64,000 nucleotides of DNA from Candidatus Bathyarchaeia archaeon (GCA_038883855.1 JAVZLH010000004.1:1-64000), one strand, 5' to 3'; numbered from the stretch's first letter, positions 4,479 through 34,748 are shown. The notes: generated by a model from the sequence alone, not told the origin. A program made the numbers and translations.

Positions 4479-4889
4479 TCACCAACTGCGCAATATTATC
4501 ATGGTGTTTGTGTTGGCTATTCCATCTATTTTACGGATTCTTTCTATGCACTCGTTGACTTCAGCAATATTCATTGCAGATATTATAATTGCAACATCAT
4601 ATTCGCCCGTAACTTCATAAACATTTTCGACGTTTGGCAGCTTCATCAATTCAGCAGAGATTTGCGATGTTGGAACCGATGGTTTTACTGAAGCTAAGGC
4701 TATGGCTTCGGCGCCCTCCGTGAGCCCCAACTTTATCGTAAACTTCTTTATAACGCCCGCTTTAACAAGATCCTTAATCCTTTTTCTAACAGCACCTTCT
4801 GAAAGCCCAATTTTGTTTCCAATTTCGCTATAAGTTGCTCGGGCATCCTGTTTGAGGATTTGGATTATTTCTTTATCAACTTCATCCAT
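4479..4889 (-). CDS. lysM: Lrp/AsnC family regulator, LysM-like
   Basis: Lrp HTH (LSEGAVRKRI) plus RAM domain (YEVTGEYD...TNTMIILRSW). It closely resembles Sulfolobus LysM as I recall it and is divergent from the lysine genes. Confidence 0.8.
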   Translation of the reverse strand: MDEVDKEIIQILKQDARATYSEIGNKIGLSEGAVRKRIKDLVKAGVIKKFTIKLGLTEGAEAIALASVKPSVPTSQISAELMKLPNVENVYEVTGEYDVAIIISAMNIAEVNECIERIRKIDGIANTNTMIILRSW

Positions 4890-6905: not shown

Positions 6906-8081
6906 ATGCCTAAAAGAGTTGTTGTGAAGTTTGGTGGAGCAGAGCTTTCATCTGGAGAAAAGTTCATAAAAGCGGCAAAAATGGTTAAGGAATCCGGCTA
7001 CGAGGAAATTGCGGTCGTCGTTTCCGCCATGACCGGAACCACCGACAACTTTGTAAACTGCATTAAAGAAATTGGGGAAGTTGACGAGGCCGATTACGCT
7101 GATGTTTTGGCCATGGGCGAAAGAACAAGTGTGAGAATTTTCTGCTCTGCCCTAAAATCTTTAGGTGTCAAATCAACTTACTTTGATCCGCAGCATGAAA
7201 ATTGGCCTATAATAACCAATTCCAACTTCAGAAATGCAAAACCTAACATTGCGGAAACAAAAAAGAGAGTCCAGAAATATGTTGAGCCGCTTCTTGGCGA
7301 TTGTATTCCAGTGATATGTGGTTTTGTCGGGAAGGATAAGTATGAGCGTGTAACTACGCTTGGAAGAGGCGGAAGCGACATCACTGCAACTCTTCTGGGC
7401 AACTGTTTAAGAGCGGATGAGGTCATACTTGTGAAGAATACGGAAGGCGTTCTATCAGCAGACCCGAAGATAGCTCCAAACGCGAAGCCTTTAAAGGAAA
7501 TCTCCATTGAAGAAATGTTTTCCCTTGCCCACGGAGGAGCAAAAATAATCCATCCAGCAGCATTAAAGTATAAGCTTCCAGAACAAAAGTTGAAAGTTGT
7601 CTGTTTTTCTGGAAGCCTATGTTCTAATGGAACTGAAATAACTGGAGTTTTCAGCGCAAACCCCATGGAATTGCGAAGTTACAGCGGATTATCAGCTCTC
7701 ACAATGGTTGGAGAAATAACGCCCAGCAACCTCAGCAAGGTCTTTTCAACCCTTAGCGAAGAGGAAATAGTCGGCATAAGCACTGGCAGAAGCTCAATAA
7801 CATTGTTTGCAAAAGTTGAAAACCCGAAAAAGGCAGTTCAGCAAATTTGCAGTCTCGAATGTTTTAAGGCGGTTAGCCTACGCGAGGGGGTGGGCGCAAT
7901 AGAGGCAATAAACCCAGACTTCATAGACTCGCCAGGGTGGGTCGCGAAGATATCGAATGCCCTTGCAGATAAAGGGATAAACATAGTTGAGGTAACCACT
8001 GGTAAAGCCACCATAAACGTGTTCGTTGACGAAAAGGACTTGGAAGAGGCTTTAACAGCCATAAAAAATGCGGTAAAATGA
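6906..8081 (+). CDS. lysC: Aspartokinase (lysine operon copy) with C-terminal ACT domains
   Basis: VVKFGG, VVSAM, TLGRGGSD, ADPK; ACT-like C-terminus. Confidence 0.93.
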   Translation: MPKRVVVKFGGAELSSGEKFIKAAKMVKESGYEEIAVVVSAMTGTTDNFVNCIKEIGEVDEADYADVLAMGERTSVRIFCSALKSLGVKSTYFDPQHENWPIITNSNFRNAKPNIAETKKRVQKYVEPLLGDCIPVICGFVGKDKYERVTTLGRGGSDITATLLGNCLRADEVILVKNTEGVLSADPKIAPNAKPLKEISIEEMFSLAHGGAKIIHPAALKYKLPEQKLKVVCFSGSLCSNGTEITGVFSANPMELRSYSGLSALTMVGEITPSNLSKVFSTLSEEEIVGISTGRSSITLFAKVENPKKAVQQICSLECFKAVSLREGVGAIEAINPDFIDSPGWVAKISNALADKGINIVEVTTGKATINVFVDEKDLEEALTAIKNAVK

Positions 8082-12241: not shown

Positions 12242-12416
12242 GACATGCCATCCTCAGATCGATTAGACCATTGAACTATTATGGTTTTAAACTGCTTACT
12301 TCGCAACATTGCTATCAAGTTTCATACTTTCTTATATTTTTATTGTATGCAACGTTACATAGAAAGATTTTAATATTACACAAGCAGTAATGGTTTGGTG
12401 CGAGGGCTAAAAATGA

Positions 12417-13967
12417 GGTATCGCTTTATCGAATAACTTTAAAAATAAAATTAGATTTTTTGACACAACCCTCAGAGATGGCGAACAAACACCTGGAGTT
12501 TCCCTAACCCCTGAAGAAAAAATTGAGGTAGCTAAAAAACTAGACGAAATTGGCGTAGACGCCATTGAAGCTGGTTTTGCAGCGGTTTCAAAAGGAGAAT
12601 TTGAAGCCATAAAGCTAATTGCAAAGGAAAACCTTAAGGCCGATGTCTTCAGTTTTGCAAGGGGAGTTAAAAGTGACATTGATGCAGTTATAGACAGCGA
12701 TGCAAACGCTGTTTTCTTAGTGATACCAGTCTCAGACAGACATATTGAATGTAAATTTGGAAAAACAAGAAACGAAATATTAGAGCTCGTGGAGGAATGC
12801 GTTCACTACGCGAAAGATCATGGCTTAAAAGTAGAGTTCGGAGCCGAAGACGCCACCAGAAGCGACTTTTCATTTCTAAAAGAGTTCATTGCTGCTGGTA
12901 TCCGAGCTGGGGCAGATTTAATTTCTCCATGCGACACTGTTGGAACACTTACTCCAGAAAGAACTTACGCTTTCTTCTCAGACCTAGTAAAGGAGTTTCC
13001 AGACATACCTTTCAGTGTCCACTGCCATGACGACTTTGGAATGGCAACGGCAAACTCCATAGCAGCTTTAATGGCTGGCGCAACAGAGGTGCATGCAACA
13101 ATAAATGGCATAGGCGAAAGGGCTGGAAACGCCGCTTTAGAAGAGGTGGCTGTCGCGTTAAAGCTTCTCTACAACATGGACGTTTCCATCAAGCTGGATA
13201 GATTATATGACGTTTCGATGCTTGTTTCAAGATTAGCTGGAATCCCAGTTCAGCCCAACAAAGCCATAGTAGGAGAAAACGCCTTCGCCCACGAGTCAGG
13301 CATACATACACATGCCATTTTGAAAGATCCCTTAACCTATGAGCCAATTCCGCCGGAGATTGTAGGACGCACAAGAAGGCTTGTTGTCGGTAAACACGCT
13401 GGGTCTAAAGGTATAAAGGCGGTTCTCAACGAGATGGGCATATACCCTGACGAAAGACAGCTGAAGGAAATCTTTTTCAAAGTTAAAGCGCTTGGAGACA
13501 AGGGCAAAAGAGTAACAGACGCGGATCTGAAGGCAATGGCCGAATCAATTATGAAACTTCCAAAATGTAGACCGTTTAAACTTAAAGAGCTAACAGTTGT
13601 AACTGGAAACAAAGTAACCCCAACTGCTTCTGTTAAACTCGATGTAAAGGGTGAAACTGTTGTGGGCGCAGCCACAGGCGTCGGACCAGTAGACGCGGCG
13701 ATTAACGCCGTGCGAAAAGCAGTTTCAATGGTTGAGCCTATAAAACTTGATGAGTATCACGTAAAATCCATTACTGGCGGAACCGATGCAGTAGTTGAGG
13801 TTATTGTGCGCTTAAGCAAAGGAGATAAAACAGCGGCAGTTCTCGGAATTCATGGAGATATAGTTATGGCAAGCGTGGAAGCAATGCTAAGCGGAATGAA
13901 CGCACTGTTAACAAACAACGAGGCACAGAAGGATGATTTAAAGATCTCAATAAAAGCTAGGAGGTAA
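12417..13967 (+). CDS. cimA: (R)-citramalate synthase; the open frame extends about 100 codons upstream of the ORF-track start and lacks a canonical start codon
   Basis: The frame after TGA 12414-12416 reads ...KNKIRFFDTTLRDGEQTPGVSLTPEEKIEVAKKLDEIG... and continues into the 12720 ORF. HCHDDFG and the C-terminal allosteric domain resemble methanogen CimA. Confidence 0.8.
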   Translation, partial: GIALSNNFKNKIRFFDTTLRDGEQTPGVSLTPEEKIEVAKKLDEIGVDAIEAGFAAVSKGEFEAIKLIAKENLKADVFSFARGVKSDIDAVIDSDANAVFLVIPVSDRHIECKFGKTRNEILELVEECVHYAKDHGLKVEFGAEDATRSDFSFLKEFIAAGIRAGADLISPCDTVGTLTPERTYAFFSDLVKEFPDIPFSVHCHDDFGMATANSIAALMAGATEVHATINGIGERAGNAALEEVAVALKLLYNMDVSIKLDRLYDVSMLVSRLAGIPVQPNKAIVGENAFAHESGIHTHAILKDPLTYEPIPPEIVGRTRRLVVGKHAGSKGIKAVLNEMGIYPDERQLKEIFFKVKALGDKGKRVTDADLKAMAESIMKLPKCRPFKLKELTVVTGNKVTPTASVKLDVKGETVVGAATGVGPVDAAINAVRKAVSMVEPIKLDEYHVKSITGGTDAVVEVIVRLSKGDKTAAVLGIHGDIVMASVEAMLSGMNALLTNNEAQKDDLKISIKARR

Positions 13968-22440: not shown

Positions 22441-22455
22441 CGCAAAATTTATATA
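22441..22455 (+). promoter_or_regulatory. BRE-TATA promoter of the thr leader/thrBC
   Basis: CGCAAAA-TTTATATA; predicts a transcription start around 22478-22482, just 5' of the leader ORF. Confidence 0.75.
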
Positions 22456-22477
22456 CAGGGTTGCTTGAGTCACTTTC

Positions 22478-22629
22478 CGAGTGGTTTGGCTTGAAAGTCG
22501 CTAGTCCCCTAACGCAAATAACAACTACAACAGGAACAGGATCTCGTTAGGGGACCAGACGAAGCCAAACTCGTTTGCTTGTTTGCGCTGTTTTGCTTTC
22601 GTCTGGTCTTTTGTGAGGTGAAATAAGAT
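22478..22629 (+). promoter_or_regulatory. Putative thr attenuator (alternative RNA stems)
   Basis: Perfect 11-bp stem 22504-22514/22545-22555 and 9-bp stem 22484-22492/22562-22570. A competing perfect 11-bp stem 22553-22563/22598-22608. Anti-SD 22597-22604 can pair with 22616-22623, which overlaps the SD. Confidence 0.8.
22491..22550 (+). CDS. Threonine-rich leader peptide MKVASPLTQITTTTGTGSR (thrL-like)
   Basis: TTG...TAG, 19 aa. Six Thr codons (four consecutive: ACA ACT ACA ACA) plus one Ile, directly upstream of thrBC. Confidence 0.85.
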   Translation: MKVASPLTQITTTTGTGSR

Positions 22630-23714
22630 TGAAGGCTGGCAATAAGTTTCGGCGTGCCGCCGCCAATTTCGGAGATAAGAGTCTAGTTCAAGGCAGTTGC
22701 TTCAATGATAAGCGTGAACTTTATCCGCTGCTGGTTCAGAAACAGAAAAGTTGCGAGAAAACTCTTGTCTTTAATCATGTTGAGGCAATTGCCCCAGCTT
22801 CTTCGGCGAATCTCGGCGCTGGGTTTGACGTTTTCGGCGTAGCATTGGATGCGTTATTCGACAAAGTTTCTGTTGATGTCATAAAAGGTGGCAGCGGCAT
22901 TAAAATTTCTGTTGAGGGAAAAGGCTCAGAGCTTATTCCAACCGAACCAAACAGAAACACTGCTGGGATAGTTGCTAAGGCTTTATTGAAATTCTCTAAC
23001 AAAAGTTGCGGTCTCGCCATAAACATTGAAAAGGGAATACGTGCTGGCAGTGGTTTAGGAAGTAGTGCAGCAAGCGCCGCAGCCGCTGCAATAGCCATAA
23101 ACGAAGCTTTACAATTAAACCTTCCAAAAAGTGAACTCATAAAGTTTGCAGCATTAGGCGAAGTGGCAGCCGCTGGCGTCCCGCACGCGGATAATGTTTC
23201 TCCATCTATTCTAGGATTTTTCACTTTAATAGCCTCAAACAACCCGTTTGATGTTGTACAACTGCCCATGCCCAAAAACGTCAAATTCGTTATAGTGACG
23301 CCAGATATAGTTCTGGAAACCTCTTTAGCGCGTTCAGTTCTTCCAAAGAAAGTAAACTTTTCAGATGCCATCAGCAACATTGCACATGCATCAGCATTTG
23401 TAACTGGCATCATGACAAACAACATAGCTTTAATGGGAAAAAGCATGAACGATTCGCTCGCTGAACCATACAGAGCAAAATTAATCCCAGGCTTAATGGA
23501 AGTTAAAAAGAACGCCTTGGAAGCAGGCGCAGAGGGAATCGCAATAAGCGGGTCAGGACCCTCTATTTTGGCGTTAGTAGACTCATCGAAAAAAGTTGAG
23601 GACAAGGTTATGAAGGCAATGAAAGAAGTTTTTGAAAAACATGGAATAGGAAGTGAAGCTGTGATTGCGAAGCCCGGTCATGGAGGGAAAGTTGTTAGGA
23701 GAGAAGAGGCTTGA
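22629..23714 (+). CDS. thrB: Homoserine kinase (GHMP) with N-terminal extension
   Basis: APASSANLGAGFD, GSGLGSSAAS, HADNV, ISGSGPS; SD GAGGTGA at 22615-22621. Confidence 0.95.
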   Translation: MKAGNKFRRAAANFGDKSLVQGSCFNDKRELYPLLVQKQKSCEKTLVFNHVEAIAPASSANLGAGFDVFGVALDALFDKVSVDVIKGGSGIKISVEGKGSELIPTEPNRNTAGIVAKALLKFSNKSCGLAINIEKGIRAGSGLGSSAASAAAAAIAINEALQLNLPKSELIKFAALGEVAAAGVPHADNVSPSILGFFTLIASNNPFDVVQLPMPKNVKFVIVTPDIVLETSLARSVLPKKVNFSDAISNIAHASAFVTGIMTNNIALMGKSMNDSLAEPYRAKLIPGLMEVKKNALEAGAEGIAISGSGPSILALVDSSKKVEDKVMKAMKEVFEKHGIGSEAVIAKPGHGGKVVRREEA

Positions 23715-24934
23715 TTTCTTTAAGGTGTATAAGTTGCGGAGCAGAATACTCCATCAATGACACAGTTTACACTTGTAGAAAATGCGGCGACTTACTTGAA
23801 GTAAAGTTCGATTTAAAAGAGTTGAAGGAAAAGCTAGACGAGGCGGATTGGAGGCAGAGGCGAATATGTGTTTGGAAATATAGGGAGTTTCTTCCAGTTC
23901 TTGACGAATCTAAAATTGTAACTTTGCATGAAGGCGGTACGCCGCTTTACAAATGCGATAAGCTTGGCAAGAAACTTGGAGTTAAGAGCTTATATGTGAA
24001 GAATGAGGGAGCGAACCCAACTGGTTCTTTTAAAGATAGGGGAATGACCGTTGGCGTTTCTAAAGCGTTGGAGCTTAAGGCAATGGCGGTTGTTTGCGCT
24101 TCAACTGGCAACACTTCGGCTTCATTGGCTGCTTACGCAGCTAAGGCTGGCTTAAACTGTGTAGTGCTTATTCCCTCTGGAAAAATAGCTCTTGGAAAAC
24201 TTGCGCAGGCAATGATGTATGGGGCTAGTGTGGTGGCGGTTAAAGGCAACTTTGACGACGCCCTCCAAATAGTTTTGGAAGCAAGCAAAAATCTCGGCCT
24301 ATACTTATTGAACTCTATAAACCCGTTTAGGATAGAGGGACAGAAAACCTCAGCCTTCGAAATCTGCGACCAGTTAGGATGGCGCTCTCCAGACAGGGTA
24401 ATTTTGCCAGTTGGAAACGCTGGAAACATAACAGCTTACTGGAAAGGATTCAAAGAGCTAAGAAATTTAGGAATTATTGAGGAACTGCCTAAAATGACGG
24501 GTATACAGGCGGTTGGAGCCAACCCAATCGCAAAAGCCTTCGCAACAAAAAGCAGCCAAATAGAGCCCGTTAAAAACCCAGAAACAATAGCCACGGCAAT
24601 CCGCATAGGCAACCCAGTAAACTGGAAAAGGGCGCTGAACGCTATGCGAGAATCTGGTGGAACAGCCATAGCAGTCACAGACGACGAAATAGTTTATGCA
24701 CAAAAACTCTTGGCGAGAACGGAGGGAATCTTTGTTGAACCCGCCAGCGCAGCAAGCATAGCTGGACTAAAAAAGCTAGTTGAAAACAAAGAAGTTGACT
24801 CAAACGAAACCATTGTATGTGTAACCACTGGCCATGGACTGAAAGACCCAGAAGCTGCCATAAAAGCTTGCGAAAAGGTTGTTGAAATCAAGCCAAACCT
24901 AGAAGCATTGAAAAAGGCATTAAACCTTAATTGA
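23711..24934 (+). CDS. thrC: Threonine synthase
   Basis: N-terminal CxxC...CxxC, NPTGSFKDRG PLP Lys, ASTGNTS, PVGNAGN, TGHGLKDP. Confidence 0.97.
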   Translation: MISLRCISCGAEYSINDTVYTCRKCGDLLEVKFDLKELKEKLDEADWRQRRICVWKYREFLPVLDESKIVTLHEGGTPLYKCDKLGKKLGVKSLYVKNEGANPTGSFKDRGMTVGVSKALELKAMAVVCASTGNTSASLAAYAAKAGLNCVVLIPSGKIALGKLAQAMMYGASVVAVKGNFDDALQIVLEASKNLGLYLLNSINPFRIEGQKTSAFEICDQLGWRSPDRVILPVGNAGNITAYWKGFKELRNLGIIEELPKMTGIQAVGANPIAKAFATKSSQIEPVKNPETIATAIRIGNPVNWKRALNAMRESGGTAIAVTDDEIVYAQKLLARTEGIFVEPASAASIAGLKKLVENKEVDSNETIVCVTTGHGLKDPEAAIKACEKVVEIKPNLEALKKALNLN

Positions 24935-24947
24935 CCGGAGGCTTTGG

Positions 24948-25814
24948 CTACTCACCCTTTTCCATCACTTCCAAAATGGCGTACATTTTCTCGTACATTG
25001 CAGCCAAATCTAAAGTTTTGGATAAACCCTTGTTTATCTCATTGTAAAAATTCTGGAAGGCTTCCGTGTCGCCGCTCTCTATCAACTTCCTTATCTTTTC
25101 CGCATTTAAAACAAACCTTCTCAGATACTCTGGAGAGTATTTGTTCGCCATATGTAACGAAGCGTGAAGCTCCGAGTCATGCATCATTATCGCTCCTATA
25201 AGAACTTGCTGAAGCGTAAATGTTGTACCGCTCAACTTTTCCAGAGTTTTAAAATCCTCGTCTTTAATTGCTGAGGCGAAGGCCATGTTCACAAAATACT
25301 GAAGAGAAAGTGTTACCGCCATTGCCCTATCATGTTTTTCAGCGTCAACCACAACAATTTCGGCGTCAGGGAAAAATCGTTTAGCAACAGCCAGTTCGCT
25401 TTCAGGGTTTAAAACTGGCACTAAAACAAATTTTTTCTTCGCTTTCTGCATTGGACCAAAAAGAGGATGCAAAGAAAGTGGCTGAACACCAGATTTAGAG
25501 CTTTCCCTTAAAACATCAATTATCCCAGACTTCACAGAAGCAATTTCAGAAACTATAGACCCTTGTTTCAATTTAGGTGTTATTTCCCGCAATACTTCAG
25601 CTGTTTTGCCTATTGGAACAGACACAAGCGTTAGGTCAGCGTCTTCAACAGCTTCCTGATTGTTCCTTGCAACTTTTGCACCGTAATTTTTCGCAAGTGC
25701 TCTCAATTTTTCTTGGTTTATACCAGAAATCGTTAACGGATATCCTTTCTCAGCGAAGTATTGGGTAAACCATTTACCCATCCGTCCTGCCGCGCCTAAA
25801 ATAGCGATCTTCAT
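24948..25814 (-). CDS. tyrA: Prephenate/arogenate dehydrogenase
   Basis: GAAGRMG, SVPI, IASVK, HPLFGP, HDRAMA. Confidence 0.93.
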   Translation of the reverse strand: MKIAILGAAGRMGKWFTQYFAEKGYPLTISGINQEKLRALAKNYGAKVARNNQEAVEDADLTLVSVPIGKTAEVLREITPKLKQGSIVSEIASVKSGIIDVLRESSKSGVQPLSLHPLFGPMQKAKKKFVLVPVLNPESELAVAKRFFPDAEIVVVDAEKHDRAMAVTLSLQYFVNMAFASAIKDEDFKTLEKLSGTTFTLQQVLIGAIMMHDSELHASLHMANKYSPEYLRRFVLNAEKIRKLIESGDTEAFQNFYNEINKGLSKTLDLAAMYEKMYAILEVMEKGE

Positions 25815-27208
25815 TTTAGTAAATCCCCCATCTTTTCAACAGCTTCAAGAAGCACATTTTTAGGTTGACATGCAGTTATCCTAAAGAAATGTTTGTATTC
25901 CTCGCCGAACGCCGTGCCAGGCGTGACGCAAACACTCTTTTCCGTCATAAGTCTCTTAACAAAAGTTTGCGTGTCTATGTTTTCGTTGCGCAGTTTCGGA
26001 AAAACGTAGAAGCCGCCGTCTGGTTTGTGGTAGGAGACAGGTATCTTATCTAAGGCGTCGCAGAGAAAGTCCATTCTCGCCCTGACTGTTTTTGCGTATT
26101 TTTTGGCTTCTTCACGGCAGTCTAAGGCTTTTATTGCTGCGTACTGAACAAACTCTGGGACGCTTGTAAGGCATAAATTCTGAATTTTCACCATCTTTTT
26201 AATGGTTTCCGTATCCGAAATAGCATAGCCCACTCTAAAACCCGTCATGCCGAACGTTTTGGAAAACGAGTTGACAAAGACGAATTTACATCCTGGAAAC
26301 TCCAGTATGCTTTTAAACGGTTTAAAAGCGAAGTTAGAGTAGACTTCATCGCTCATAATGTATATGCCTTTATCGTTGGCTATCTCAACGATCTGTTTTA
26401 AAACATCGCCACTAATAATTTTTCCAGTTGGATTGTTAGGATTATTCAAAATTATCAGTTTTGTTAGCCTATTTACATTTTCAGCTAAAGCATCCAAATC
26501 CGGTTCCCAATTGTTTTCCAGTTCAGCCGGAATCTTCACAGCCTTTGCTTGAACAGCTCTTATACAATCTTTATAGGCTGGCCATGCAGGCTCAAAAACT
26601 ATGGCTTCGTCGCCTGGAGACAATATGGACGCTATGCCGAGATAAACCGCGTATCGTCCACCGGAAGTTACAATTACTTGTTCAGACGAGACATTTGCAT
26701 GATAAAGTTCGTTGTTGACTGAAGCGATTTTCTCTCTAAGTTGAAGAATTCCCGCGCTTTCGGTGTAGTGGGCGTAGCCGCTTTTTAAAGCTTCTGTTAC
26801 AGCTTCTTTTACGCTTTCTGGAGGCCCAAAGTCTGGTTCTCCAACGTCTAAGCGGATTAGCCGTTTACCAGTTCTCTCAAGTTTTTTGGCTTCAGCAAAC
26901 ACCTCGTAAGGCGTGGAGAAACCCGTTTTTCCCTCTGATTTTTGGATTATGTCCTTTTGGATGTTTTTTGACTCTTCAATTAAAAGGTTCAGCAGCCTCA
27001 ATCCAAAATCCAAATCAACACCGTAAGCCTCGCATTTCTTGGAAATAATTTCTTTGAGCTTTCTCTCAGCGTTAACATCTTCCACTGGCAAGCCCTTTTT
27101 TATTTTAAATTCAACCACTTTTTTGGCTAGAGCGAAACGTTTTCCAACTAACTGGAATATCTCAGCCGTAACTTCCTCTATTTCTTTACGTAAATTGTCT
27201 ATATCCAT
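25811..27208 (-). CDS. Chorismate mutase (AroQ)-class I aminotransferase fusion
   Basis: The first ~90 aa are AroQ-like (LRKEI...KR...K...D..E...SKNIQ). They are followed by VGEPDF, NNPNNPTG, SDEVY and SFSKTFGMTGFRVG. Confidence 0.88.
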   Translation of the reverse strand: MDIDNLRKEIEEVTAEIFQLVGKRFALAKKVVEFKIKKGLPVEDVNAERKLKEIISKKCEAYGVDLDFGLRLLNLLIEESKNIQKDIIQKSEGKTGFSTPYEVFAEAKKLERTGKRLIRLDVGEPDFGPPESVKEAVTEALKSGYAHYTESAGILQLREKIASVNNELYHANVSSEQVIVTSGGRYAVYLGIASILSPGDEAIVFEPAWPAYKDCIRAVQAKAVKIPAELENNWEPDLDALAENVNRLTKLIILNNPNNPTGKIISGDVLKQIVEIANDKGIYIMSDEVYSNFAFKPFKSILEFPGCKFVFVNSFSKTFGMTGFRVGYAISDTETIKKMVKIQNLCLTSVPEFVQYAAIKALDCREEAKKYAKTVRARMDFLCDALDKIPVSYHKPDGGFYVFPKLRNENIDTQTFVKRLMTEKSVCVTPGTAFGEEYKHFFRITACQPKNVLLEAVEKMGDLLK

Positions 27209-27295
27209 CTTAATCTTAAAATTTAGACTCCATCGTTCTATTATTCTTTTCCAAAGTTATTAGGGTTGATTTCGGACATGGGGTGGATTTAGAAA

Positions 27296-27317
27296 CCAAA
27301 AAGTATAAATTTTAAAA
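27296..27317 (+). promoter_or_regulatory. BRE-TATA promoter of the aromatic leader operon
   Basis: CCAAAAAG-TATAAAT (alternative TTTTAAAA at 27310-27317); predicts a start around 27331-27342. Confidence 0.65.
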
Positions 27318-27331
27318 AGTTGTTCTAAGTA

Positions 27332-27469
27332 CGGTTATTTCAATGGATAATCCAGTAGCCACAAGAACTACATATTTTGGATATTTTAGTGGCTATTGGG
27401 CATTTGGTTATTAGGAGAAGCCGCGAACACTTTCAGGTTCTTGGTTTCTCCGTTTGGGGGGTTTGTGTG
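27332..27469 (+). promoter_or_regulatory. Putative aromatic attenuator (alternative RNA stems)
   Basis: Stem 27352-27362/27389-27399, plus 5' segment 27332-27341 pairing with 27415-27423. A competing hairpin 27414-27428/27437-27451 has a 3' arm TTCTCC next to the G-rich SD 27456-27461. Confidence 0.75.
27343..27414 (+). CDS. Aromatic-rich leader peptide MDNPVATRTTYFGYFSGYWAFGY
   Basis: ATG...TAG, 23 aa. Eight of the last 13 codons are Tyr (4), Phe (3) or Trp (1). It lies directly upstream of the aspartokinase-aro operon. Confidence 0.88.
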   Translation: MDNPVATRTTYFGYFSGYWAFGY

Positions 27470-28771
27470 GACAAAAATCAAAACGATGTCTTTGATCGTC
27501 CTGTCGTTGTGAAATTCGGTGGGAGTAGTCTTGCAAACGGCGAAAAAATAGCTGATGCTGTCAAAGCCGTTGTGAAAGAAGCGCATAGAGGAGTAAAAAT
27601 TGTTGTTGTCGTTTCAGCCATGGGGAAAACTACAGATCTTCTGCTTGAGGTTGCCAGCGAAATCGTAAACTGCAATGGCGGCGCCGCGTTAAACAGTGAT
27701 GTTGACGATATTTTGGCTATGGGAGAGAGAACCAGCGCGAGAATCTTTTCAGCGGCCCTAAAAGCAAAGGGTGTAAAATGCCGCTATTTTGACCCGGCAG
27801 ATCCGGACTGGCCCATAATCACTAATGATAAAGCTACCAACGCTGACCCTATTCTTTCAGAGTGCGAAGCCCGCATAATGAATTATGTTGCTCCTCTGCT
27901 TAAAGAAGGAACCGTCGCAGTCATCCCAGGTTTCATCGGTAAAACTTTAAATAACAAAATCACGACCATGGGAAGAGGCGGAAGTGACACGACAGCATTA
28001 ATAATAGCACATGCGCTCAAAGCAAAACAAGTTATCCTCGTAACCGACGTGGACGGCATAATGACCGCAGACCCTAAACTTGTCAAGTCTGCAAGAAAAA
28101 TACCGGAGATAGATGTAAACTCATTGATCGGGTTGGCGAGTTCAGGTAAGAAGTTCCTCCAAAGGAAAGCTTTGAGATACAAAGACGAGAATATAGACAT
28201 TAAAATTGTAAACCATAACCATTGCGATTTAAACGCGGAAGGCACAATCGTGAAGGGGTCTTTCACAAGCACCATCGCCAACTTAGATTTTCCAGAACCA
28301 GTAGCCTCAATAACTGTAGTGGGCAGAGCCTTATCCCAGTCGCCTGAACTTTTACATCAGATAATTCAGAAGGTCAAAAAAGCCGATGTTTCCCTTTTGG
28401 GAATGTCGGCCAACTATGATTCACTTATACTCTACTTACCAGAAAACATGTTTGACAAAATACTCGAACCGCTCCATTCAGTTGTCCTTGAAAACCCGGA
28501 AGCTTTAGCCATTGCCGTTAGAAAAAACTTGGCTCTGCTAAAGATTAAAACAGCAGAATTAGAAGAAACCCCGGGAATAATAAGCAGATCTGCCCAAGCC
28601 CTTAGCTCCAAAAACATTAATATTTATGGAATTTTCACAATAGCCTCTGGGATTCACATTTTTGTCGATATGACATCAGCTAAAGAAGCCTTAGCTTTAG
28701 TCAGAAAAAGCCTTGGAATAAACCGCTTAGAAAAAGACATAAAACGAGAGGGAGATATTGAAGATGACTAG
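27467..28771 (+). CDS. Aspartokinase, second copy (aromatic operon); start reassigned to GTG 27467
   Basis: VVVKFGGSS, VVSAMGKTTD, TMGRGGSDTT, DVDGIMTADP, ACT domains. The ORF-track start 27377 falls inside the leader peptide. Confidence 0.92.
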   Translation: MDKNQNDVFDRPVVVKFGGSSLANGEKIADAVKAVVKEAHRGVKIVVVVSAMGKTTDLLLEVASEIVNCNGGAALNSDVDDILAMGERTSARIFSAALKAKGVKCRYFDPADPDWPIITNDKATNADPILSECEARIMNYVAPLLKEGTVAVIPGFIGKTLNNKITTMGRGGSDTTALIIAHALKAKQVILVTDVDGIMTADPKLVKSARKIPEIDVNSLIGLASSGKKFLQRKALRYKDENIDIKIVNHNHCDLNAEGTIVKGSFTSTIANLDFPEPVASITVVGRALSQSPELLHQIIQKVKKADVSLLGMSANYDSLILYLPENMFDKILEPLHSVVLENPEALAIAVRKNLALLKIKTAELEETPGIISRSAQALSSKNINIYGIFTIASGIHIFVDMTSAKEALALVRKSLGINRLEKDIKREGDIEDD

Positions 28772-28835
28772 CAGAAAAGGAGGAAAAGGGAAGGATGTTT
28801 AGGATAATAAAGTCCTTAATTCTAGGTGAAGTATA

Positions 28836-29924
28836 ATGAGGGAGTTTTGGATTAAAATAGAAAAGGACCTTCCAAAGGAGTTAAAAGAGCAGATGATAAA
28901 GGGTACTAGCGATTTTTGCACGGCTTATGTTGTTGACGCAGCCGACGAGGCTTTAGCCAGAAGCCTAGGAGCAAAAACGCTGGTTTCCCAAAAGAGTGGC
29001 GACATAATACTCTTTGAATCTTCTCAGAAAGCTTCTAACGCAAAAATAAACAGAAAAAGGTGTATCCAAGCGAAAATACGTTCAGGAGAAGATGAGAGGA
29101 AAATTGTGAAGTTAGCCGAGGCTGGAATAGAATACATTTTAGCGAAATGCGAAGACTGGAAAATAATTCCGTTAGAAAACCTAATAGCCAGCACGAGAGG
29201 CAAAAGCAAACTTTTAGCGTCTATATCAAGCGCTGATGAAGCTGTCCTTGCACTGGAAGTGCTTGAAGTAGGTGTGGACGGCATTCTGGTGGAGTTGTCG
29301 GATGTTAATGAGATAAAGAAGATTTATGAAACTTGCAGAAAAGTAGACATTAAGTTTGCGGAGGAGGAAGGCATCGAAAAACTGCAGTTGTTTGAAGCGA
29401 AAGTGACTCAGATTAAGCCTTTGCGTTCTGGAGCGCGGACATGTATAGACACATGTGATTTGATGAAGGAAGGCGAAGGAATGCTGGTGGGCTGTCAATC
29501 TTCTGGTCTTTTCCTAATTCAAGCAGAGACAGCGGAAAACCCCTTCGTCGCTCCCAGACCTTTCAGAGTGAATGCTGGTGCAACAGCGCAGTATTTGCTT
29601 GCCAGCGGAGGCAACACAAAATACTTATCGGAGGTTAGGGCTGGCGACGAGGTTCTAATAGTTGATAAGGAAGGGAGAAGCAGAGTTGCTAATGTTTGCA
29701 GAACGAAGATTGAGTGGAGACCATTATTATTGATTGAGGCGGAACATGAAGGCAGAACTTTCAAGGCTATTGTGCAGAATGCTGAAACAATAAGGCTTGC
29801 GACGAAGGAAGGGTCAAAGTCTGTTAAAGATTTAACAAAGGGAGACACTGTGCTAATCCACATACAAGAGGGCGGAAGACACTTCGGCAAACTTGTCAAA
29901 GAAGAAAGAGTGATAGAACGGTGA
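28836..29924 (+). CDS. 3-dehydroquinate synthase II (AroB', DKFP/ADH pathway)
   Basis: DWKIIPLENLIA, LEVGVDG, RTCIDTC, RPFRVNAG, QNAETIRL, GRHFG. Confidence 0.95.
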   Translation: MREFWIKIEKDLPKELKEQMIKGTSDFCTAYVVDAADEALARSLGAKTLVSQKSGDIILFESSQKASNAKINRKRCIQAKIRSGEDERKIVKLAEAGIEYILAKCEDWKIIPLENLIASTRGKSKLLASISSADEAVLALEVLEVGVDGILVELSDVNEIKKIYETCRKVDIKFAEEEGIEKLQLFEAKVTQIKPLRSGARTCIDTCDLMKEGEGMLVGCQSSGLFLIQAETAENPFVAPRPFRVNAGATAQYLLASGGNTKYLSEVRAGDEVLIVDKEGRSRVANVCRTKIEWRPLLLIEAEHEGRTFKAIVQNAETIRLATKEGSKSVKDLTKGDTVLIHIQEGGRHFGKLVKEERVIER

Positions 29925-30610
29925 CCATCAAAGTCTGCGTTCCAATAGCCGCAGAAAAACCATCAGAAATCCCAGCGCTAATAGAAAAGGCGGAAAAAGC
30001 GGGAGCAAACCTCGCAGAAATAAGACTAGACTATCTGGAAGAGTTTAAGGGAGTAGAAAAGGCGGTTGAAGGCGCAAAAATTCCGCTAATAGCGACAAAT
30101 AGGCAATATGAACAGGGCGGGAAGCGTAAACAAGACGAAGGTGAAAGGGTGCAGAGGCTTTTAGAATTGACGGACAAAGGATTCTCCATGGTTGACGTTG
30201 AAATAACAACACCAAACCTAAAGTCTGTGGTAAAAAACTTGAAAAAGAAAGGCGTAGAAACCATAATATCTTTTCACGATTTTAACAAAACCCCAAATCT
30301 AGCAGAATTACGCAAAATTGCCGCTTCACAAATAAAAGCTGGAGCAGACATATGCAAAATAGTCACAAAAGCAAACGACATCAGCGACAACCTCACATGC
30401 CTATCTTTAGTTTCAGAAACTCATCGAAAAACCCGCATAGTGTGCTTTGCCATGGGAAACAATGGAATCCTCTCAAGAATCCTCTCGCCGATTTTCGGCG
30501 CCCACTTCACATACGCCTCGCTTGAAAGCGGAATGGAAACAGCTCCTGGACAGATAAGCATACAAAGGCTTAAAGAAATCTACAAATGTTTAGGTGTCGA
30601 GGAAATTTGA
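29921..30610 (+). CDS. aroD: Type I 3-dehydroquinate dehydratase
   Basis: EIRLD, IATNR, ISFHDF, KIV, FAMG, TAPGQ. Confidence 0.95.
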   Translation: MTIKVCVPIAAEKPSEIPALIEKAEKAGANLAEIRLDYLEEFKGVEKAVEGAKIPLIATNRQYEQGGKRKQDEGERVQRLLELTDKGFSMVDVEITTPNLKSVVKNLKKKGVETIISFHDFNKTPNLAELRKIAASQIKAGADICKIVTKANDISDNLTCLSLVSETHRKTRIVCFAMGNNGILSRILSPIFGAHFTYASLESGMETAPGQISIQRLKEIYKCLGVEEI

Positions 30611-31473
30611 AAATTTCCGGGAAAACCCAACTTTGCGCGTTGATAGGCGACCCAGTTGAGCATTCCCTAAGCCCATACATTCACAACGCTGCATTCAAAC
30701 ATCTAAAACTTGACTTTGTTTACGTGACTTTCAAAGTCTCAAAGGAAAACGTCAAAGAGGCATTGGAAGGCGCAAGAGCCTTAGGAATTAGGGGATTAAA
30801 CGTAACAATGCCACTAAAAACTGCGGTAATCCAGCACCTTGACAAACTTGACCCAAACGCAGAGAAAATAGGCGCAGTAAACACAATCCTCAACAACGAG
30901 GGAAAGTTAACTGGCTACAACACTGATGGATTTGGAGCCCTCGAAGCCCTAAAAGCAAAGAGACAAAACCCAGCGGGAAAGAACATTCTCGTTTTAGGAG
31001 CTGGTGGAGCTGCAAGAGCAGTTGCGTTTGCGCTATGCAAAGATGCAAAAGACATGACGATTCTTAATAGGACGCCAGAAAAGGCAAAAATCCTAGCAGA
31101 GGAACTGAGCAGAATTTTTGAAAAAAAGGTGAAGTTCGGCGGGTTAGGCGAGGAAACTTTAAGGCGAGAGGTGGAAAAGGCGGATATACTTGTGAATGCC
31201 ACAGCAGTTGGAATGGCGCCAAAAATAGATGAGACTCCCGTTGACATGAAACTTTTGCATTCAAACCTAACAGTCTTTGATTTGGTATACAACCCGCCAG
31301 AAACCCGACTTCTGAAAGAAGCTAAGGCCATGGGAGCAAAAACTGTGGATGGAATTTGTATGCTTGTTCACCAAGGGGCTTTATCCTTCCAAATATGGAC
31401 TGGCAGAAAGGCGCCAATTGACGTGATGACACGCGCCTGCAAAAGAGCCTTAAGAACTTTAAGAGGCGAGTAG
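30607..31473 (+). CDS. aroE: Shikimate dehydrogenase
   Basis: GDPVEHSLSP, NVTMPLK, GAVNT, NTDG, GAGGAARA; start TTG 30607. Confidence 0.97.
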   Translation: MKISGKTQLCALIGDPVEHSLSPYIHNAAFKHLKLDFVYVTFKVSKENVKEALEGARALGIRGLNVTMPLKTAVIQHLDKLDPNAEKIGAVNTILNNEGKLTGYNTDGFGALEALKAKRQNPAGKNILVLGAGGAARAVAFALCKDAKDMTILNRTPEKAKILAEELSRIFEKKVKFGGLGEETLRREVEKADILVNATAVGMAPKIDETPVDMKLLHSNLTVFDLVYNPPETRLLKEAKAMGAKTVDGICMLVHQGALSFQIWTGRKAPIDVMTRACKRALRTLRGE

Positions 31474-31476
31474 GCG

Positions 31477-32343
31477 ATGATTGGAAAAGCCATAGCCCAT
31501 GGAGCAGTAACAATAGTTAACGCAATCGCCTGCGGTTTCGGAGCAGCTTTAGGCGTGAAACTATGGACCAAAGCCACAGTAAAATTAACCGACAACCCAG
31601 GAAAGATTGAGGGGAGAATAATTTCTGACCCCAGTGAAAATCCAAGCTTAATGGTGGAGACTGTAAAACAGGTTTTGAACTATTTGAAACTGGAAAAGGT
31701 GTATGGTGCTTATGTGGAGACCGAATCCAACATACCAGTTGCAAGGGGGTTGAAAAGCAGCAGTGTAGCAGCCAACGCCGTAGCATTAGCCACCTTCGCA
31801 GCGTTAAAGAAGGAAGTTGACGATTTGACCGTTGTAAAATTGGGAGTGAAAGCCGCCATAAACGCTAAAGTCACGATAACAGGAGCTTTTGACGATGCAT
31901 GCGCATCTTACTTTGGAAACATAGCCGTGACAGATAACAAAGCCATGAAAATAATGAAGTTCTCTGAGGTTGAAGGCGAATACGAGGTTTTGATTCACGT
32001 TCCACAAGAGAAACGGTACACTGCAAGCATCAACGTTAAAGAAACAAAGGCAATAGCCAGAGAAGTGAAGGCAATTCACAGACTAGTCCTTAATGGAGAT
32101 TACTGGACTGCAATGACCCTTAATGGCTTGGCGTATTCCGCAGTTTTTGGCTACGACCCAAAAATAGCCTTAGAAGCTCTTGTGAATGGGGCGGTGGCTG
32201 CTGGCTTGTCTGGAACCGGACCCGCAGTAGCTGCCATAGTTCCAAAAGAAAGTGCTGGCAAAGTTGCTGAAGCATGGCGGAAACATGGCGGAACGATAAT
32301 TAAAACGGAGATTAACCGTGAAAAGGCGCATGTTTTGAGGTGA
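31477..32343 (+). CDS. aroK: Archaeal (GHMP-type) shikimate kinase
   Basis: GAVTIVNAIA, GLKSSS, TITGAFDDA, LSGTGPA. Confidence 0.95.
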   Translation: MIGKAIAHGAVTIVNAIACGFGAALGVKLWTKATVKLTDNPGKIEGRIISDPSENPSLMVETVKQVLNYLKLEKVYGAYVETESNIPVARGLKSSSVAANAVALATFAALKKEVDDLTVVKLGVKAAINAKVTITGAFDDACASYFGNIAVTDNKAMKIMKFSEVEGEYEVLIHVPQEKRYTASINVKETKAIAREVKAIHRLVLNGDYWTAMTLNGLAYSAVFGYDPKIALEALVNGAVAAGLSGTGPAVAAIVPKESAGKVAEAWRKHGGTIIKTEINREKAHVLR

Positions 32344-32347
32344 AAGT

Positions 32348-33646
32348 TTGGCGACGCTAACTGTGAAGAAAACTGAAAGGCTGGAAGGGACTGTAAGGGC
32401 TCCGCCTTCAAAGGCTTACACTCATAGGGCTGTTATAGCAGCTTCGCTTTCTAAAGGAAAATCGGTGATAAAGTATCCATTGAGGTGCAGCGATACAGAA
32501 GCCACGATTAAGGCGTGTTCAATGTTGGGCGCCAAAATAAAATGGAGCGAGAAAGAAAAAGCGTTAACTGTTGAGGGATTTTCAAAGCCCAAAACCCCAG
32601 ACAACATCATTGACTGTCGAGGTTCAGGCTCAACAATAAGGTTTCTAGCCTCTGTTTGCGCTTTGGCTGAGGGTGCATCTGTTTTAACCGGAAACAAAAG
32701 CTTGAGAAGGAGACCTATGCAACCTTTAATTGACGCTTTAAACCAGCTTGGAACACACTGTTTTAGCGCTAGAAATGATGGGAAACCGCCGATAATTGTT
32801 CTCGGCGGAGGGGTTAAGGGCGGTGAAGCCTCGCTTGTTGGGAATGTAAGTTCACAGTTCATCTCCAGCCTTCTTTTTGCTGCTCCAAAGGCTGAAAAGG
32901 AGACTAGGATAGAGGTTAATACGCCTCTTGAATCCAAATCTTACGTGGAAATGACGTTGAACACGCTTAAAGCACACAAAATAAAAGTTGAATACTCTCA
33001 GAGTTTTGACTGCTTCAGCGTGCCATGCAATCAAGAGTATATGCCTACAAGCCACGTTATAGAGGGCGATTACTCGTCAGCCGCCTTTCTTCTGGCAGCT
33101 GCAAGCATAACAAACTCTAAAGTTATGGTAACAGGCTTGAAAAAAGAGACTCTTCAAGGCGACAAAATAATAGTGGACATCATTAGGAGGATGGGCGTAG
33201 CCGTAAGCTCAGCTGAAGATGGCATAGAAGTTTCTGGAAGCGGCGAAGCGCTTAAGCCAATTAATGTTGATTTGAGGGATTCGCCCGATTTAGTTCCCAT
33301 ATGCGCTGTGTTGGCATGTTTTGCTAAGGGAGAAAGCGTCATTAGTGGAGTTGAAAGGCTGCGTTTTAAAGAGTCTGATAGGCTTGTGGCGTTGGCTTCT
33401 GAATTGGGTAAGATGGGAGCGAAAATTACGGTGAGCGAAAACTCTATGGTAATTGAGGGTGGCGCAAAGCTTCGAGGCGCTCATGTGTTTTCTCACAGAG
33501 ACCATAGGATAGCTATGGCTTGTGTTGTTGCAGCTTTAGGCGCTGAAGGCGAAATAGTTATTCACGGAATAGAATGTATTAAAAAGTCGTATCCAAACTT
33601 TGTTGAAGACTTAAAGAGTTTAGGGGGAAAGTTGTTTGTCTGGTAA
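32348..33646 (+). CDS. aroA: 3-phosphoshikimate 1-carboxyvinyltransferase (EPSP synthase)
   Basis: PPSKAYTHR, RRPM, SSQFISS, GDYSSA, KESDR, DHRIAM. Confidence 0.98.
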   Translation: MATLTVKKTERLEGTVRAPPSKAYTHRAVIAASLSKGKSVIKYPLRCSDTEATIKACSMLGAKIKWSEKEKALTVEGFSKPKTPDNIIDCRGSGSTIRFLASVCALAEGASVLTGNKSLRRRPMQPLIDALNQLGTHCFSARNDGKPPIIVLGGGVKGGEASLVGNVSSQFISSLLFAAPKAEKETRIEVNTPLESKSYVEMTLNTLKAHKIKVEYSQSFDCFSVPCNQEYMPTSHVIEGDYSSAAFLLAAASITNSKVMVTGLKKETLQGDKIIVDIIRRMGVAVSSAEDGIEVSGSGEALKPINVDLRDSPDLVPICAVLACFAKGESVISGVERLRFKESDRLVALASELGKMGAKITVSENSMVIEGGAKLRGAHVFSHRDHRIAMACVVAALGAEGEIVIHGIECIKKSYPNFVEDLKSLGGKLFVW

Positions 33647-34748
33647 CTCTTTCGGAAAAGCCTTTGTAATTACGTGTTTCGGAGAAAGCCATGGAAAATG
33701 CGTGGGAGTAGTAATTGACGGGTGTCCAGCGGGGTTACCGCTTTCCGAAAAAGACATTCAAACAGAACTGGACAAGAGAAGACCAGGCGCATCCAGAATT
33801 AGCACACCCAGAGCAGAGGAAGACAAAGCCGAAATCCTCTCCGGAGTTTTTGGCGGATACACGACTGGTGCACCCATATGTATTGTTGTTTGGAACAAGG
33901 ATGTGGATTCTGAACCCTACGAAAGGTTGAGGAGTAAGCTTAGACCCGGACATGCGGATTACGCTGCCCATCTCAGATACAGCGGGTTTAATGATTATAG
34001 GGGTGGTGGGCGTTTTTCTGGGCGCATAACCGCCGCGTATGTTATGGCTGGAGCGGTAGCCAAAAAACTATTGGAAACTGTTGGTGTGGAGGTTTTGGCG
34101 CACACTGTTCAAATAGGTTCAATAGAAGTTTCAAAGAAGATTTCATACGATGAAATTAGGAAGAACGTTTACGGGAATGATGTTAGATGCGCAGACCCGC
34201 AAGCGGCTGCTCTAATGGAGAAAGAAATTTTGAAAGTTAAAAGCGAAGGGGACAGCCTAGGCGGAGTGGTTGAGTGCATAGCGCTCAATTATCCCGCTGG
34301 TGTGGGCGACCCCATATTTGATTCTTTGGATGCAGACATAGCGAAAATAATGTTTGACATTCCCGGCGTGAAGGGCGTTGAAATCGGTGCTGGTTTTAAC
34401 GCGGCATCTATGAAAGGCTCAGAAAACAACGATGCATTTCGAATAAGAAATGGCAAGATAGTTACGGAAACTAATAATTGTGGTGGGATTTTGGGCGGCT
34501 TGTCTAACGGCATGCCTATAGTGGCTAGAGTAGCGTTTAAGCCAACCTCTTCAATTCTTAAAAGGCAGAGAACTGTGGATATTGAACGTATGGAAGAGGT
34601 TGAGTTGAAGCTTTCTGGAAGGCATGACCCTTGCATTGTGCCCAGAGCGGTTCCAGTTGTTGAATCCTGCATGGCTGTAGTGCTGGTTGACCATGCCATT
34701 AGGCTTGGAAAAATTTCGCCAACGAGCATTTCCTCTCCAAAAGTTTGA
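33636..34748 (+). CDS. aroC: Chorismate synthase
   Basis: FGESHG, RPGHAD, RGGGRFSGR, GGILGG, GRHDPC. Confidence 0.98.
   Translation: MSGNSFGKAFVITCFGESHGKCVGVVIDGCPAGLPLSEKDIQTELDKRRPGASRISTPRAEEDKAEILSGVFGGYTTGAPICIVVWNKDVDSEPYERLRSKLRPGHADYAAHLRYSGFNDYRGGGRFSGRITAAYVMAGAVAKKLLETVGVEVLAHTVQIGSIEVSKKISYDEIRKNVYGNDVRCADPQAAALMEKEILKVKSEGDSLGGVVECIALNYPAGVGDPIFDSLDADIAKIMFDIPGVKGVEIGAGFNAASMKGSENNDAFRIRNGKIVTETNNCGGILGGLSNGMPIVARVAFKPTSSILKRQRTVDIERMEEVELKLSGRHDPCIVPRAVPVVESCMAVVLVDHAIRLGKISPTSISSPKV

Follow-up and report, generated by a model that had tools for sequence, protein, structure and literature searches.

Leader-peptide attenuation is a textbook example of the coupling between transcription and translation in bacteria. 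In the attenuators of the bacterial thr, pheA, trp and his operons, the operon is preceded by a short frame in which codons for the pathway's end product (threonine and isoleucine, or the aromatic amino acids) abound, the transcript can adopt alternative folds, the stop codon of the frame is placed so that a terminating ribosome blocks one of these folds, and a stem is followed by a run of U. Here, we describe two leaders with such features in 64,000 nucleotides (nt) of archaeal DNA, that is, bases 1-64000 of contig C4 (hereafter the window) in the 1.11-Mb, 85%-complete genome of a member of the Bathyarchaeia, an uncultured hot-spring archaeon. The thr leader is located between a leuA/cimA-type gene and thrB-thrC, and the aro leader between a divergent chorismate mutase-aminotransferase/tyrA pair and the aspartate kinase gene heading seven aro genes. 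We read both as putative ribosome-sensing leader peptides (attenuators), in which a hairpin next to the stop codon would hide a terminator tract, and assign this reading a probability of roughly 45%. A full-text literature search, by which subscription journals are largely uncovered, yielded no report of leader-peptide attenuation in any archaeon.

The two leaders differ from their bacterial counterparts in several respects. They carry an archaeal TATA/B recognition element (BRE) promoter, their 5' untranslated region (5' UTR) would measure only about 5-15 nt, the upstream open reading frame (uORF) lacks a Shine-Dalgarno sequence (SD), and the SD of the first gene stands 0-3 nt past the U-run. 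The bacterial four-segment layout (1:2/2:3/3:4) places the cognate codons in segment 1, whereas here they lie in the loop and the 3' half of a hairpin; three segments compete in the thr leader, and in the aro leader no other fold comes close in energy. Furthermore, a terminating ribosome would here cover the 5' arm of the hairpin that precedes the U-run, and not an antiterminator. Two defining features of bacterial attenuators, the four-segment layout and a terminator left free by the terminating ribosome, are lacking in these leaders, which functionally would be leader-peptide attenuators.

Other described systems share single parts of the design. At E. coli pyrBI and pyrE, a ribosome at the end of the leader frame blocks the adjacent hairpin, as it would here; there, however, nucleotides are sensed through polymerase speed and the presence of the ribosome means ON. 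As the leader frames described here are proposed to sense tRNA charging, the same geometry needs the opposite meaning of the hairpin. At mgtL/mgtA, and at tna with Rho, translation of a short codon-rich frame decides whether the loading site of a termination factor is exposed; in our leaders, aCPSF1/FttA on a U-rich tract is the candidate to replace Rho on a C-rich rut site. In ermC/cat translational attenuation, the position of the ribosome in the leader remodels a hairpin near the SD, which recalls an anti-SD/SD option of the aro leader. In ermC/cat, the default fold sequesters the SD and a drug-induced stall releases it, whereas the SD here is not part of the main hairpin and its default state is predicted to be the accessible one; its pairing with the 3' arm is predicted only for a covered 5' arm, and not for every clade. 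A search of the whole window against Rfam at gathering scores returned a tRNA only, and both leaders, searched at E values up to 10, gave unrelated low-score matches only.

According to passages of PMC8716108, archaeal terminators are U-rich tracts that need no preceding hairpin, and good binding of aCPSF1 requires two U4 tracts. The discussion section of PMC11616081 puts forward a competition of FttA with the ribosome for the elongation complex and states, after earlier work, that archaea in general couple transcription with translation. Both leaders resemble aCPSF1/FttA terminators, as far as these are described in those passages of PMC8716108 and PMC11616081, in that they contain a U-rich tract of about 25-30 nt with runs of U3-U5, comparable to the 23-nt U-tract with U4 blocks in Methanococcus maripaludis. 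They differ from them in that the tract could be hidden in a hairpin, stands in a 5' leader instead of at a gene end, and is known here from sequence alone.

Two leader frames matched to the downstream pathway

In each leader, a promoter is followed by a short 5' UTR, a uORF rich in codons for amino acids made by the downstream pathway, a hairpin abutting the uORF stop codon, and the SD of the first gene. This shared layout, with uORFs of 19 and 23 codons, had been proposed in an earlier reading of the window made before any database search (hereafter the sequence-only reading); both leaders were found where it had placed them, and its naming of the downstream genes agrees with the Pfam and NCBIfam assignments.

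All features are on the plus strand and are given in window coordinates. The thr promoter (22442-22455) consists of a BRE-like G/A-rich stretch and the TATA box TTTATATA at 22448-22455. The distance from the TATA box to the uORF start is 38-44 nt in the eight thr leaders listed, and archaeal promoter geometry would put the transcription start near 22478. The thr uORF (22491-22550), conserved in nine distinct sequences, starts with UUG at 22491, comprises 19 codons (LKVASPLTQITTTTGTGSR) and stops with UAG at 22548-22550. Six of the codons are for Thr (22512-22514, 22521-22532 and 22536-22538) and one is for Ile. The aro promoter, CCAAAAAGTATAAAT (27296-27310), is composed of CCAAAAA and GTATAAAT, occupies columns that are invariant among relatives (alignment A1), and its BRE starts 42-52 nt before the uORF AUG. 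The aro uORF (27343-27414) has 23 codons (MDNPVATRTTYFGYFSGYWAFGY), an AUG start and a UAG stop, and is found in 14 distinct homologues of the main set and in two more. It contains eight Tyr, Phe or Trp codons, all of them within the last 13 codons, and its final sense codon is for Tyr. Judging from the TATA-to-start distances, the 5' UTR of both leaders is probably about 10 nt long (range about 5-15 nt).

A run of Thr codons (27358-27372, ATRTT) precedes the aromatic block of the aro uORF and reads ATTTT or ATTTTT in relatives of the window's own clade (L001, L002, L013, L014). Because the first gene of the operon, aspartate kinase, also feeds threonine synthesis, dual sensing by the aro leader is conceivable.

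Within this single genome, codon content is weak evidence for the aro leader and moderate evidence for the thr leader. Among its intergenic small open reading frames of 12-30 codons, at least seven Phe, Tyr or Trp codons occur in 36 sense and 67 antisense frames, and at least six Thr codons in four sense and three antisense frames. The case for the leaders therefore rests on conservation. Protein searches for relatives gave loci from genomes (12) and from metagenomes (11). All 15 Bathyarchaeia loci having upstream sequence carry, 5' of aspartate kinase, an aromatic-rich frame of 22-26 codons (for example MDKPMATTMRFTYYFSGYWFTY, MSNSIATKAMLFLDYYFSGYYFFGF, MDIPIATQKPFKFTFDGYWYPFSY and MNEEIATTSAQLFVYGYRFNGYFWYF), and additional copies of the aro leader occur at L009, L023, L031 and L038. 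A Thr-rich frame was found in nine distinct thr leader sequences; its Thr count varies from 5 to 11 through whole-codon insertions, always in frame, and in the thr leader of L014 an upstream one-base shift is compensated so that the UUG is kept in frame. The nine thr leaders and the main set of 14 aro leaders thus retain start, frame and stop despite insertions and deletions, while the DNA diverges, and the aro leaders show synonymous exchanges of UAU with UAC and of UUU with UUC.

The enrichment of cognate codons in these relatives, a check that had been named together with the original claim, was run and proved to be specific to the uORF frame. This frame holds 7-9 Phe, Tyr or Trp among 22-26 codons, against 0-3 and 2-6 in the other two frames, and 5-11 Thr among 17-24 codons, against 0-2 in the others. 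The observed cognate count was reached, per sequence, by 0-44 of 5000 shuffles for aro and by 0-108 of 5000 for thr. On this comparative evidence, in which conservation carries the weight, both leaders are confirmed as real, beyond chance. The sequence-only reading had argued from the two codon-pathway matches that coincidence was unlikely; codon content in one genome lends this at most moderate force, and it is the in-frame conservation among relatives that upholds it.

One relative, L023, carries on a single contig the Thr leader, an aspartate kinase-thrB-thrC-homoserine dehydrogenase operon and then the aromatic leader. Conversely, thrB occurs without a Thr leader at four loci (L005, L009, L011 and L012). 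Upstream of the leaderless thrB of L009 (positions 2940-3000 of that locus), the SD and the U4 run can still be made out, together with the end of the thr hairpin 3' arm, which suggests loss of the leader by deletion.

Predicted hairpins, covariation and the U-rich tract

In folds of truncated transcripts, the thr leader forms a long hairpin that encloses the uORF (22483-22571), in which 22483-22492 pairs with 22562-22571; its predicted energy is -34.6 kcal/mol in the window and -34.6 to -41.9 kcal/mol among the nine thr leaders. Its apical stem (arms 22504-22514 and 22545-22555) closes the loop that contains the Thr codons, and the stop codon is part of the stem's 3' arm, as in every thr leader. 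The post-stop hairpin (22553-22608), with a purine-rich 5' arm and a U/C-rich loop and 3' arm, is predicted at -24.7 kcal/mol in the window and at -20.2 to -30.2 kcal/mol in all nine leaders. These two folds are mutually exclusive, lie at most 4.2 kcal/mol apart in eight of the nine leaders and are separated by estimated barriers of 15-23 kcal/mol (37 °C), so that the thr leader, as modelled, is a bistable switch. The hairpin is followed by a U4 run (22609-22612; invariant columns in alignment A3), found as UUUU in all nine thr leaders 58-65 nt past the stop codon, and by the thrB SD GAGGTG (22615-22620) and TTG start codon (22629-22631), the sole in-frame start of the thrB frame. Near position 4500-4560 of the metagenome locus L017, the 3' arm of the thr hairpin is three bases shorter than in the near-identical L010; this leader could be a natural variant with a weakened hairpin.

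The aro leader has a hairpin inside the uORF (helix 1, 27352-27399; arms 27352-27362 and 27389-27399), which RNAalifold predicts and which is 98.4% paired across 14 sequences; the aromatic codons lie in its loop, in its 3' arm and beyond it. The post-stop hairpin (27414-27451) has an SD-like 5' arm beginning GGAGAA and a U/C-rich 3' arm ending UUUCUCC; its predicted energy is -20.7 kcal/mol in the window, and all 15 leaders range from -17.3 to -23.9 kcal/mol. Its arms vary by clade (GGAGAAGCC.../...GGUUUCUCC versus GGAGAAAUCAAAAC.../...GUUUUGAUUUCUCC), with compensatory changes between clades. It is followed by a UUU run (27453-27455), the G6 SD (27456-27461) and the in-frame GTG start at 27467. 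A scan for terminator-like structures gave an alternative small hairpin (27446-27461), in which the 3' arm UUCUCC would pair with the G6 SD around a loop formed by the U-run. The aro post-stop hairpin is 3-16 kcal/mol better than any fold lacking its 3' arm, with a barrier of at most 9.3 kcal/mol in 12 of 14 leaders, and the 5' UTR would be only about 5-6 nt, too short to pair, in five of 14. The sequence-only reading had cast a long 5' hairpin as the competitor of the post-stop hairpin in both leaders; the fold energies and barriers bear this out for thr but not for aro.

Compared with shuffled sequences, the whole-leader fold of aro is unusually stable (z score -3.09; none of 200 shuffles as good), whereas that of thr is not (z score -1.24; 22 of 200 as good). 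In the alignments of the predicted hairpins, 95.6% (thr, alignment A2) and 91.2% (aro) of the cells are paired, against at most 59% when the partner columns are slid. Changes on both sides of a pair were found in three of 20 thr pairs and six of 24 aro pairs, values that six and 52 of 500 shuffles, respectively, also reach. The sequences in this test are close relatives, and MAFFT aligned the aro hairpins of L003, L004 and L022 out of register, so that the aro counts understate the pairing. Covariation, which had been put forward as a check on the two leaders, was thus seen, to a modest degree.

In all 23 leaders, a GC-rich stem is directly followed by a U-run (U4 in nine of nine thr leaders, U3-7 in 14 of 14 aro leaders). 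Up to and including this run, the last 25-30 nt consist of 40-64% U and 56-84% pyrimidine in 23 of 23, compared with 29% T genome-wide, and contain one to four runs of at least three U per leader, at least two of them in 22 of 23; two U4 blocks are present within the last 30 nt in four of nine thr and two of 14 aro leaders. At gene ends of this genome, the density of TTTT is maximal 10-30 nt past stop codons, and a hairpin terminator accompanies only two of 405 T-runs, against five of 498 in the antisense control. Because U-rich tracts are present in all 23 leaders, archaeal terminators are described as hairpin-free and gene ends here lack hairpins, we propose that the role of the post-stop hairpin is to hide a terminator rather than to be one.

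Candidate mechanism and rival explanations

The ribosome was modelled as an unpaired block of 29 nt that begins 15 nt before the first base of the A-site codon and ends 13 nt past it. With the RNA free or the ribosome at the first or middle aromatic codon, the probability of the aro hairpin was at least 0.73 in 15 of 15 leaders; with the ribosome at the last codon or the stop it was at most 0.26, and at the stop itself at most 0.20, again in 15 of 15. For the thr hairpin, the probability was at most 0.19 in nine of nine leaders with the ribosome at the stop. These models agree with the idea that the 5' arm of the hairpin is masked by a ribosome at the stop and stays free during a stall at upstream cognate codons. 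The predicted accessibility of the aro SD in the window drops from 0.71 to 0.27 with a ribosome on the stop codon, and covering the 5' arm lowers it by at least 0.1 in nine of 15 leaders at 37 °C and in 12 of 15 at 65 °C.

On these grounds we propose the following scheme. Each operon would have its own promoter and its transcript a very short 5' UTR, and the pioneer ribosome would translate the 19- or 23-codon frame. When charged tRNA-Thr (or tRNA-Tyr, -Phe or -Trp) is scarce, this ribosome would stall within the frame and leave the purine-rich segment after the stop codon free to pair with the following U/C-rich segment. The post-stop hairpin formed in this way would be the ON state, as it would hide the 25-30 nt U-rich tract ending in the U-run, which, when single-stranded, would act as an archaeal-like terminator (intrinsic and/or aCPSF1/FttA-dependent). 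In the aro leader, the hairpin would also hold the CUCC anti-SD stretch off the G-rich SD. With the amino acid in ample supply, the ribosome would run on to the stop and cover the 5' arm of the hairpin, and the U-rich arm would be exposed behind the polymerase and, in the aro leader, would pair with the SD too; OFF would thus mean an early end of transcription and/or a first gene left untranslated. On an untranslated thr transcript, the long hairpin would sequester the same 5' arm, which would provide a second route to OFF. That the terminator is the hairpin-free U-rich tract, that the post-stop hairpin is an antiterminator, and that a terminating and not a stalled ribosome switches the operon OFF is a specific proposal that we make tentatively, with the odds somewhat against it.

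The polarity of the scheme is derived mainly from the aro leader. Its hairpin would be both the default and the starvation state, because no alternative fold competes with it and because the 5' UTR would be too short in five of 14 leaders; as the starvation state of a biosynthetic operon, it would have to be ON. We therefore favour, on the modelled folds, the post-stop hairpin as the ON state, the only polarity that would fit the aro operon. The sequence-only reading had assigned this polarity to both leaders, and it receives support from the energies of the aro leader, but equilibrium modelling gives no clean answer for thr.

Several points weigh against the scheme. Equilibrium modelling of the thr leader shows no clean stall-dependent switch. 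No recognisable SD was found for either uORF, and the thr frame starts with UUG. The last aro sense codon is aromatic in 14 of 14 leaders, and a ribosome stalled at this codon would cover the hairpin, a situation more in line with the opposite polarity. By analogy, a GC-rich hairpin with a U-run behind it looks like a bacterial-type terminator, which again would imply the opposite polarity, and the aro U-run is merely 3 nt long in five of 14 leaders, the window included. As to the SD, the predicted accessibility rises in four of 15 aro leaders when the 5' arm is covered, and its masking is predicted in only three of nine thr leaders; the claim that the 3' arm acts as an anti-SD thus stood for part of the leaders only. 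Covariation is formally modest. Finally, hindrance of archaeal termination by an upstream hairpin is not covered in the passages of PMC8716108 and PMC11616081 on which we draw.

Some of these points recur in the strongest rival, classical bacterial polarity, in which the hairpin with the U-run would be an intrinsic terminator (OFF) and the long 5' hairpin the antiterminator (ON). A ribosome stalled at the codons of the apical loop would let 5' segments capture the 5' arm of the terminator before its 3' arm is made, and a ribosome reaching the stop codon would strip the antiterminator pairing, so that the terminator forms on release. A GC-rich stem that runs directly into a U-run in every leader, an apical loop that carries the Thr codons together with a 3' arm that carries the stop codon, and a final aro codon that is always aromatic are all as expected from such a device. 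So are the two nearly isoenergetic, mutually exclusive folds of thr, separated by a high barrier, of which the long hairpin is transcribed first; in thr leaders of the L016 type, moreover, a 9-nt word of the 5' arm is repeated in the terminator's 3' arm, and both copies are complementary to the post-stop segment. The aro leader, however, offers no credible antiterminator, given the energies and barriers stated above and the 5' UTR of about 5-6 nt in five of 14 leaders. A ribosome slowed at the first aromatic codons would let the terminator form and thus switch the operon OFF in starvation, which is the wrong sign. In addition, hairpin terminators are not used at the gene ends of this genome and, in passages of PMC8716108, are reported as not required in archaea. 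We consider classical polarity a serious rival, chiefly for the thr leader, if on the whole an unlikely one.

The predicted effect on the aro SD could also stand by itself. In a purely translational switch, the hairpin would be ON by holding the anti-SD, a ribosome at the stop would free the 3' arm to pair with the SD, and transcription would be unaffected. This would suit the aro leader, where the SD-like GGAGAA, the anti-SD UUCUCC and the G-rich SD stand in series, where the small 3'-arm:SD hairpin is predicted, and where SD accessibility falls with a ribosome at the stop in the majority of leaders. The drop is absent in the L003/L004 clade, however, is reversed in the L006 clade and extends to only a third of the thr leaders. 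Masking would last only as long as a ribosome occupies the last codons, which would need a high flux through uORFs that have no SD, and neither the invariant U4 run nor the bistable long hairpin of thr would have a role. A mechanism of this kind taken alone is, in our view, quite unlikely.

It might further be argued that neither leader is a sensor, the frames encoding small functional peptides or the RNA being a protein- or ligand-binding element with incidental codon content. F/Y-rich small frames do occur frequently by chance in AT-rich intergenic DNA, the thr fold is no more stable than shuffles, and translation of the uORFs is deduced solely from their sequence. Against this stand two independent matches of codon content with pathway, the conservation of start, frame and stop despite insertions and deletions, an enrichment that is frame-specific, a stop codon fixed at the base of the hairpin in all leaders and the lack of any Rfam family match, which together make this explanation very unlikely.

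TnaC and the fungal arginine attenuator peptide are models for arrest at a stop codon by a nascent peptide. A sensor of that type, in which a conserved C-terminal peptide together with the free amino acid would arrest the ribosome at the stop and keep the hairpin open, would have the right sign by geometry and fairly conserved C-terminal motifs (...SGYW.F.Y for aro, ...TG(S/Y)x for thr), but the number of Thr residues varies from 5 to 11, the peptides differ among clades, the conserved residues coincide with RNA stem positions and cognate-codon enrichment is what hungry-codon sensing predicts, so that we regard it as extremely improbable.

Distribution, genomic setting and significance

Covariance models built from the leader alignments were searched against sampled genomes with strict filters; in such a search non-detection does not show absence. 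The thr leader was detected in three of 151 genomes of the family (two of 70 genera) and, in an even sample of the class, in one of 151, which was the window's own genome. The aro leader was detected in 13 of 151 family genomes (eight of 70 genera) and in three of 151 of the class sample, all from the same family. Neither was found in other Bathyarchaeia families among these genomes. An exact scan for the thr motif in one genome per prokaryote species returned 13 matches, namely three known contigs and ten chance matches, mostly in coding DNA, with no bacterial leader among them. Both leaders are, however, present on L023 (= L007, L059), a 5803-nt contig of a metagenome-assembled genome labelled Candidatus Culexmicrobium cathedralense, a different phylum in the NCBI taxonomy. 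Its gene order is that of the Bathyarchaeia loci, and there is hardly a difference between its aro leader and the one at metagenome locus L015. This contig may reflect mis-binning or a recent transfer, and we do not count it as a sign of wide distribution. In the genomes searched, the leaders are thus confined to a few genera of one family and to this one 5.8-kb contig.

The sequence-only reading had also inferred a genome-wide system, which the searches contradict. In the window's own genome, no cognate uORF was found before trpE, ilvB, the leuA-like gene or dapA, and hisD was not found in the 85%-complete assembly. A composition scan of 628 upstream regions showed no sense-over-antisense excess of small frames rich in a single amino acid. 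An architecture search (hairpin of -15 kcal/mol or lower, T-run, SD and long open reading frame) gave nine matches in the genome, of which only the two leaders described here have a cognate uORF, and no third leader type was found in 49 related loci (276 kb). Candidates raised by the composition scan were rejected: C17 is the terminal part of a hydrophobic frame of 49 codons, and C6 falls within a TrpB-like gene. A his leader was sought by a crude search for (CAY)6, which occurs in 27 of 401 Bathyarchaeia genomes; the 27 loci, whose downstream frames were judged by eye, are within or antisense to longer frames or have no recognisable his gene downstream, and this search yielded no his leader.

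Two of the upstream regions have features of their own. The AT-rich region 5' of trpE (G000:C8:15840-15910, minus strand) contains repeated TGTAC/GTACA palindromic words and may be an operator for a DNA-binding regulator. The 478-nt gap between the divergent prephenate dehydratase gene and leuA-like gene (window 12242-12720) contains no cognate uORF, and a 90-codon frame called within it is probably spurious.

The window contains a large cluster of amino-acid biosynthesis genes. Among RNA data, no run was found to contain the leader regions; three runs available as contigs match small portions of coding sequence only. Downstream of the thr leader, thrB (22629-23714) and thrC (23711-24934) form the pair 22629-24934 and match the NCBIfam models for homoserine kinase (7e-104) and threonine synthase (4e-120). 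The NCBIfam thrB models match ThrB from residue 53 only, which leaves an N-terminal extension of about 52 residues (22629-22784); leader-bearing relatives have unrelated ThrB extensions of about 27-50 residues, and ThrB of leaderless relatives starts near the kinase domain. The aro operon (27467-34748), assigned with Pfam and NCBIfam, encodes aspartate kinase (27467-28771), 3-dehydroquinate (DHQ) synthase II, AroD, AroE, archaeal shikimate kinase, 5-enolpyruvylshikimate-3-phosphate (EPSP) synthase and chorismate synthase. A paralogous aspartate kinase gene (6906-8081) belongs to a dap/lys cluster, and L023 has a third aspartate kinase type 3' of its Thr leader, a pattern that recalls pathway-specific isozymes. 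An aro-specific aspartate kinase makes sense because DHQ synthase II presumably marks the archaeal aromatic amino-acid route that begins at aspartate semialdehyde.

The narrow distribution of the leaders and their uncultured host limit the interest of the finding. The leaders are nevertheless short (about 140-170 nt) and could be moved into reporter constructs in tractable archaea. If a hairpin-free U-rich terminator is indeed exposed by the terminating ribosome, the polarity would be the inverse of that of every bacterial leader-peptide attenuator, and the leaders would offer a natural handle on transcription-translation coupling in archaea as well as a view of RNA structure acting on the U-tract and on aCPSF1/FttA termination. 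Two pathway-matched leaders of different sequence would then mean that archaea, too, use the ribosome as an amino-acid sensor, and no earlier case of Archaea sensing amino acids through stalled ribosomes would be known.

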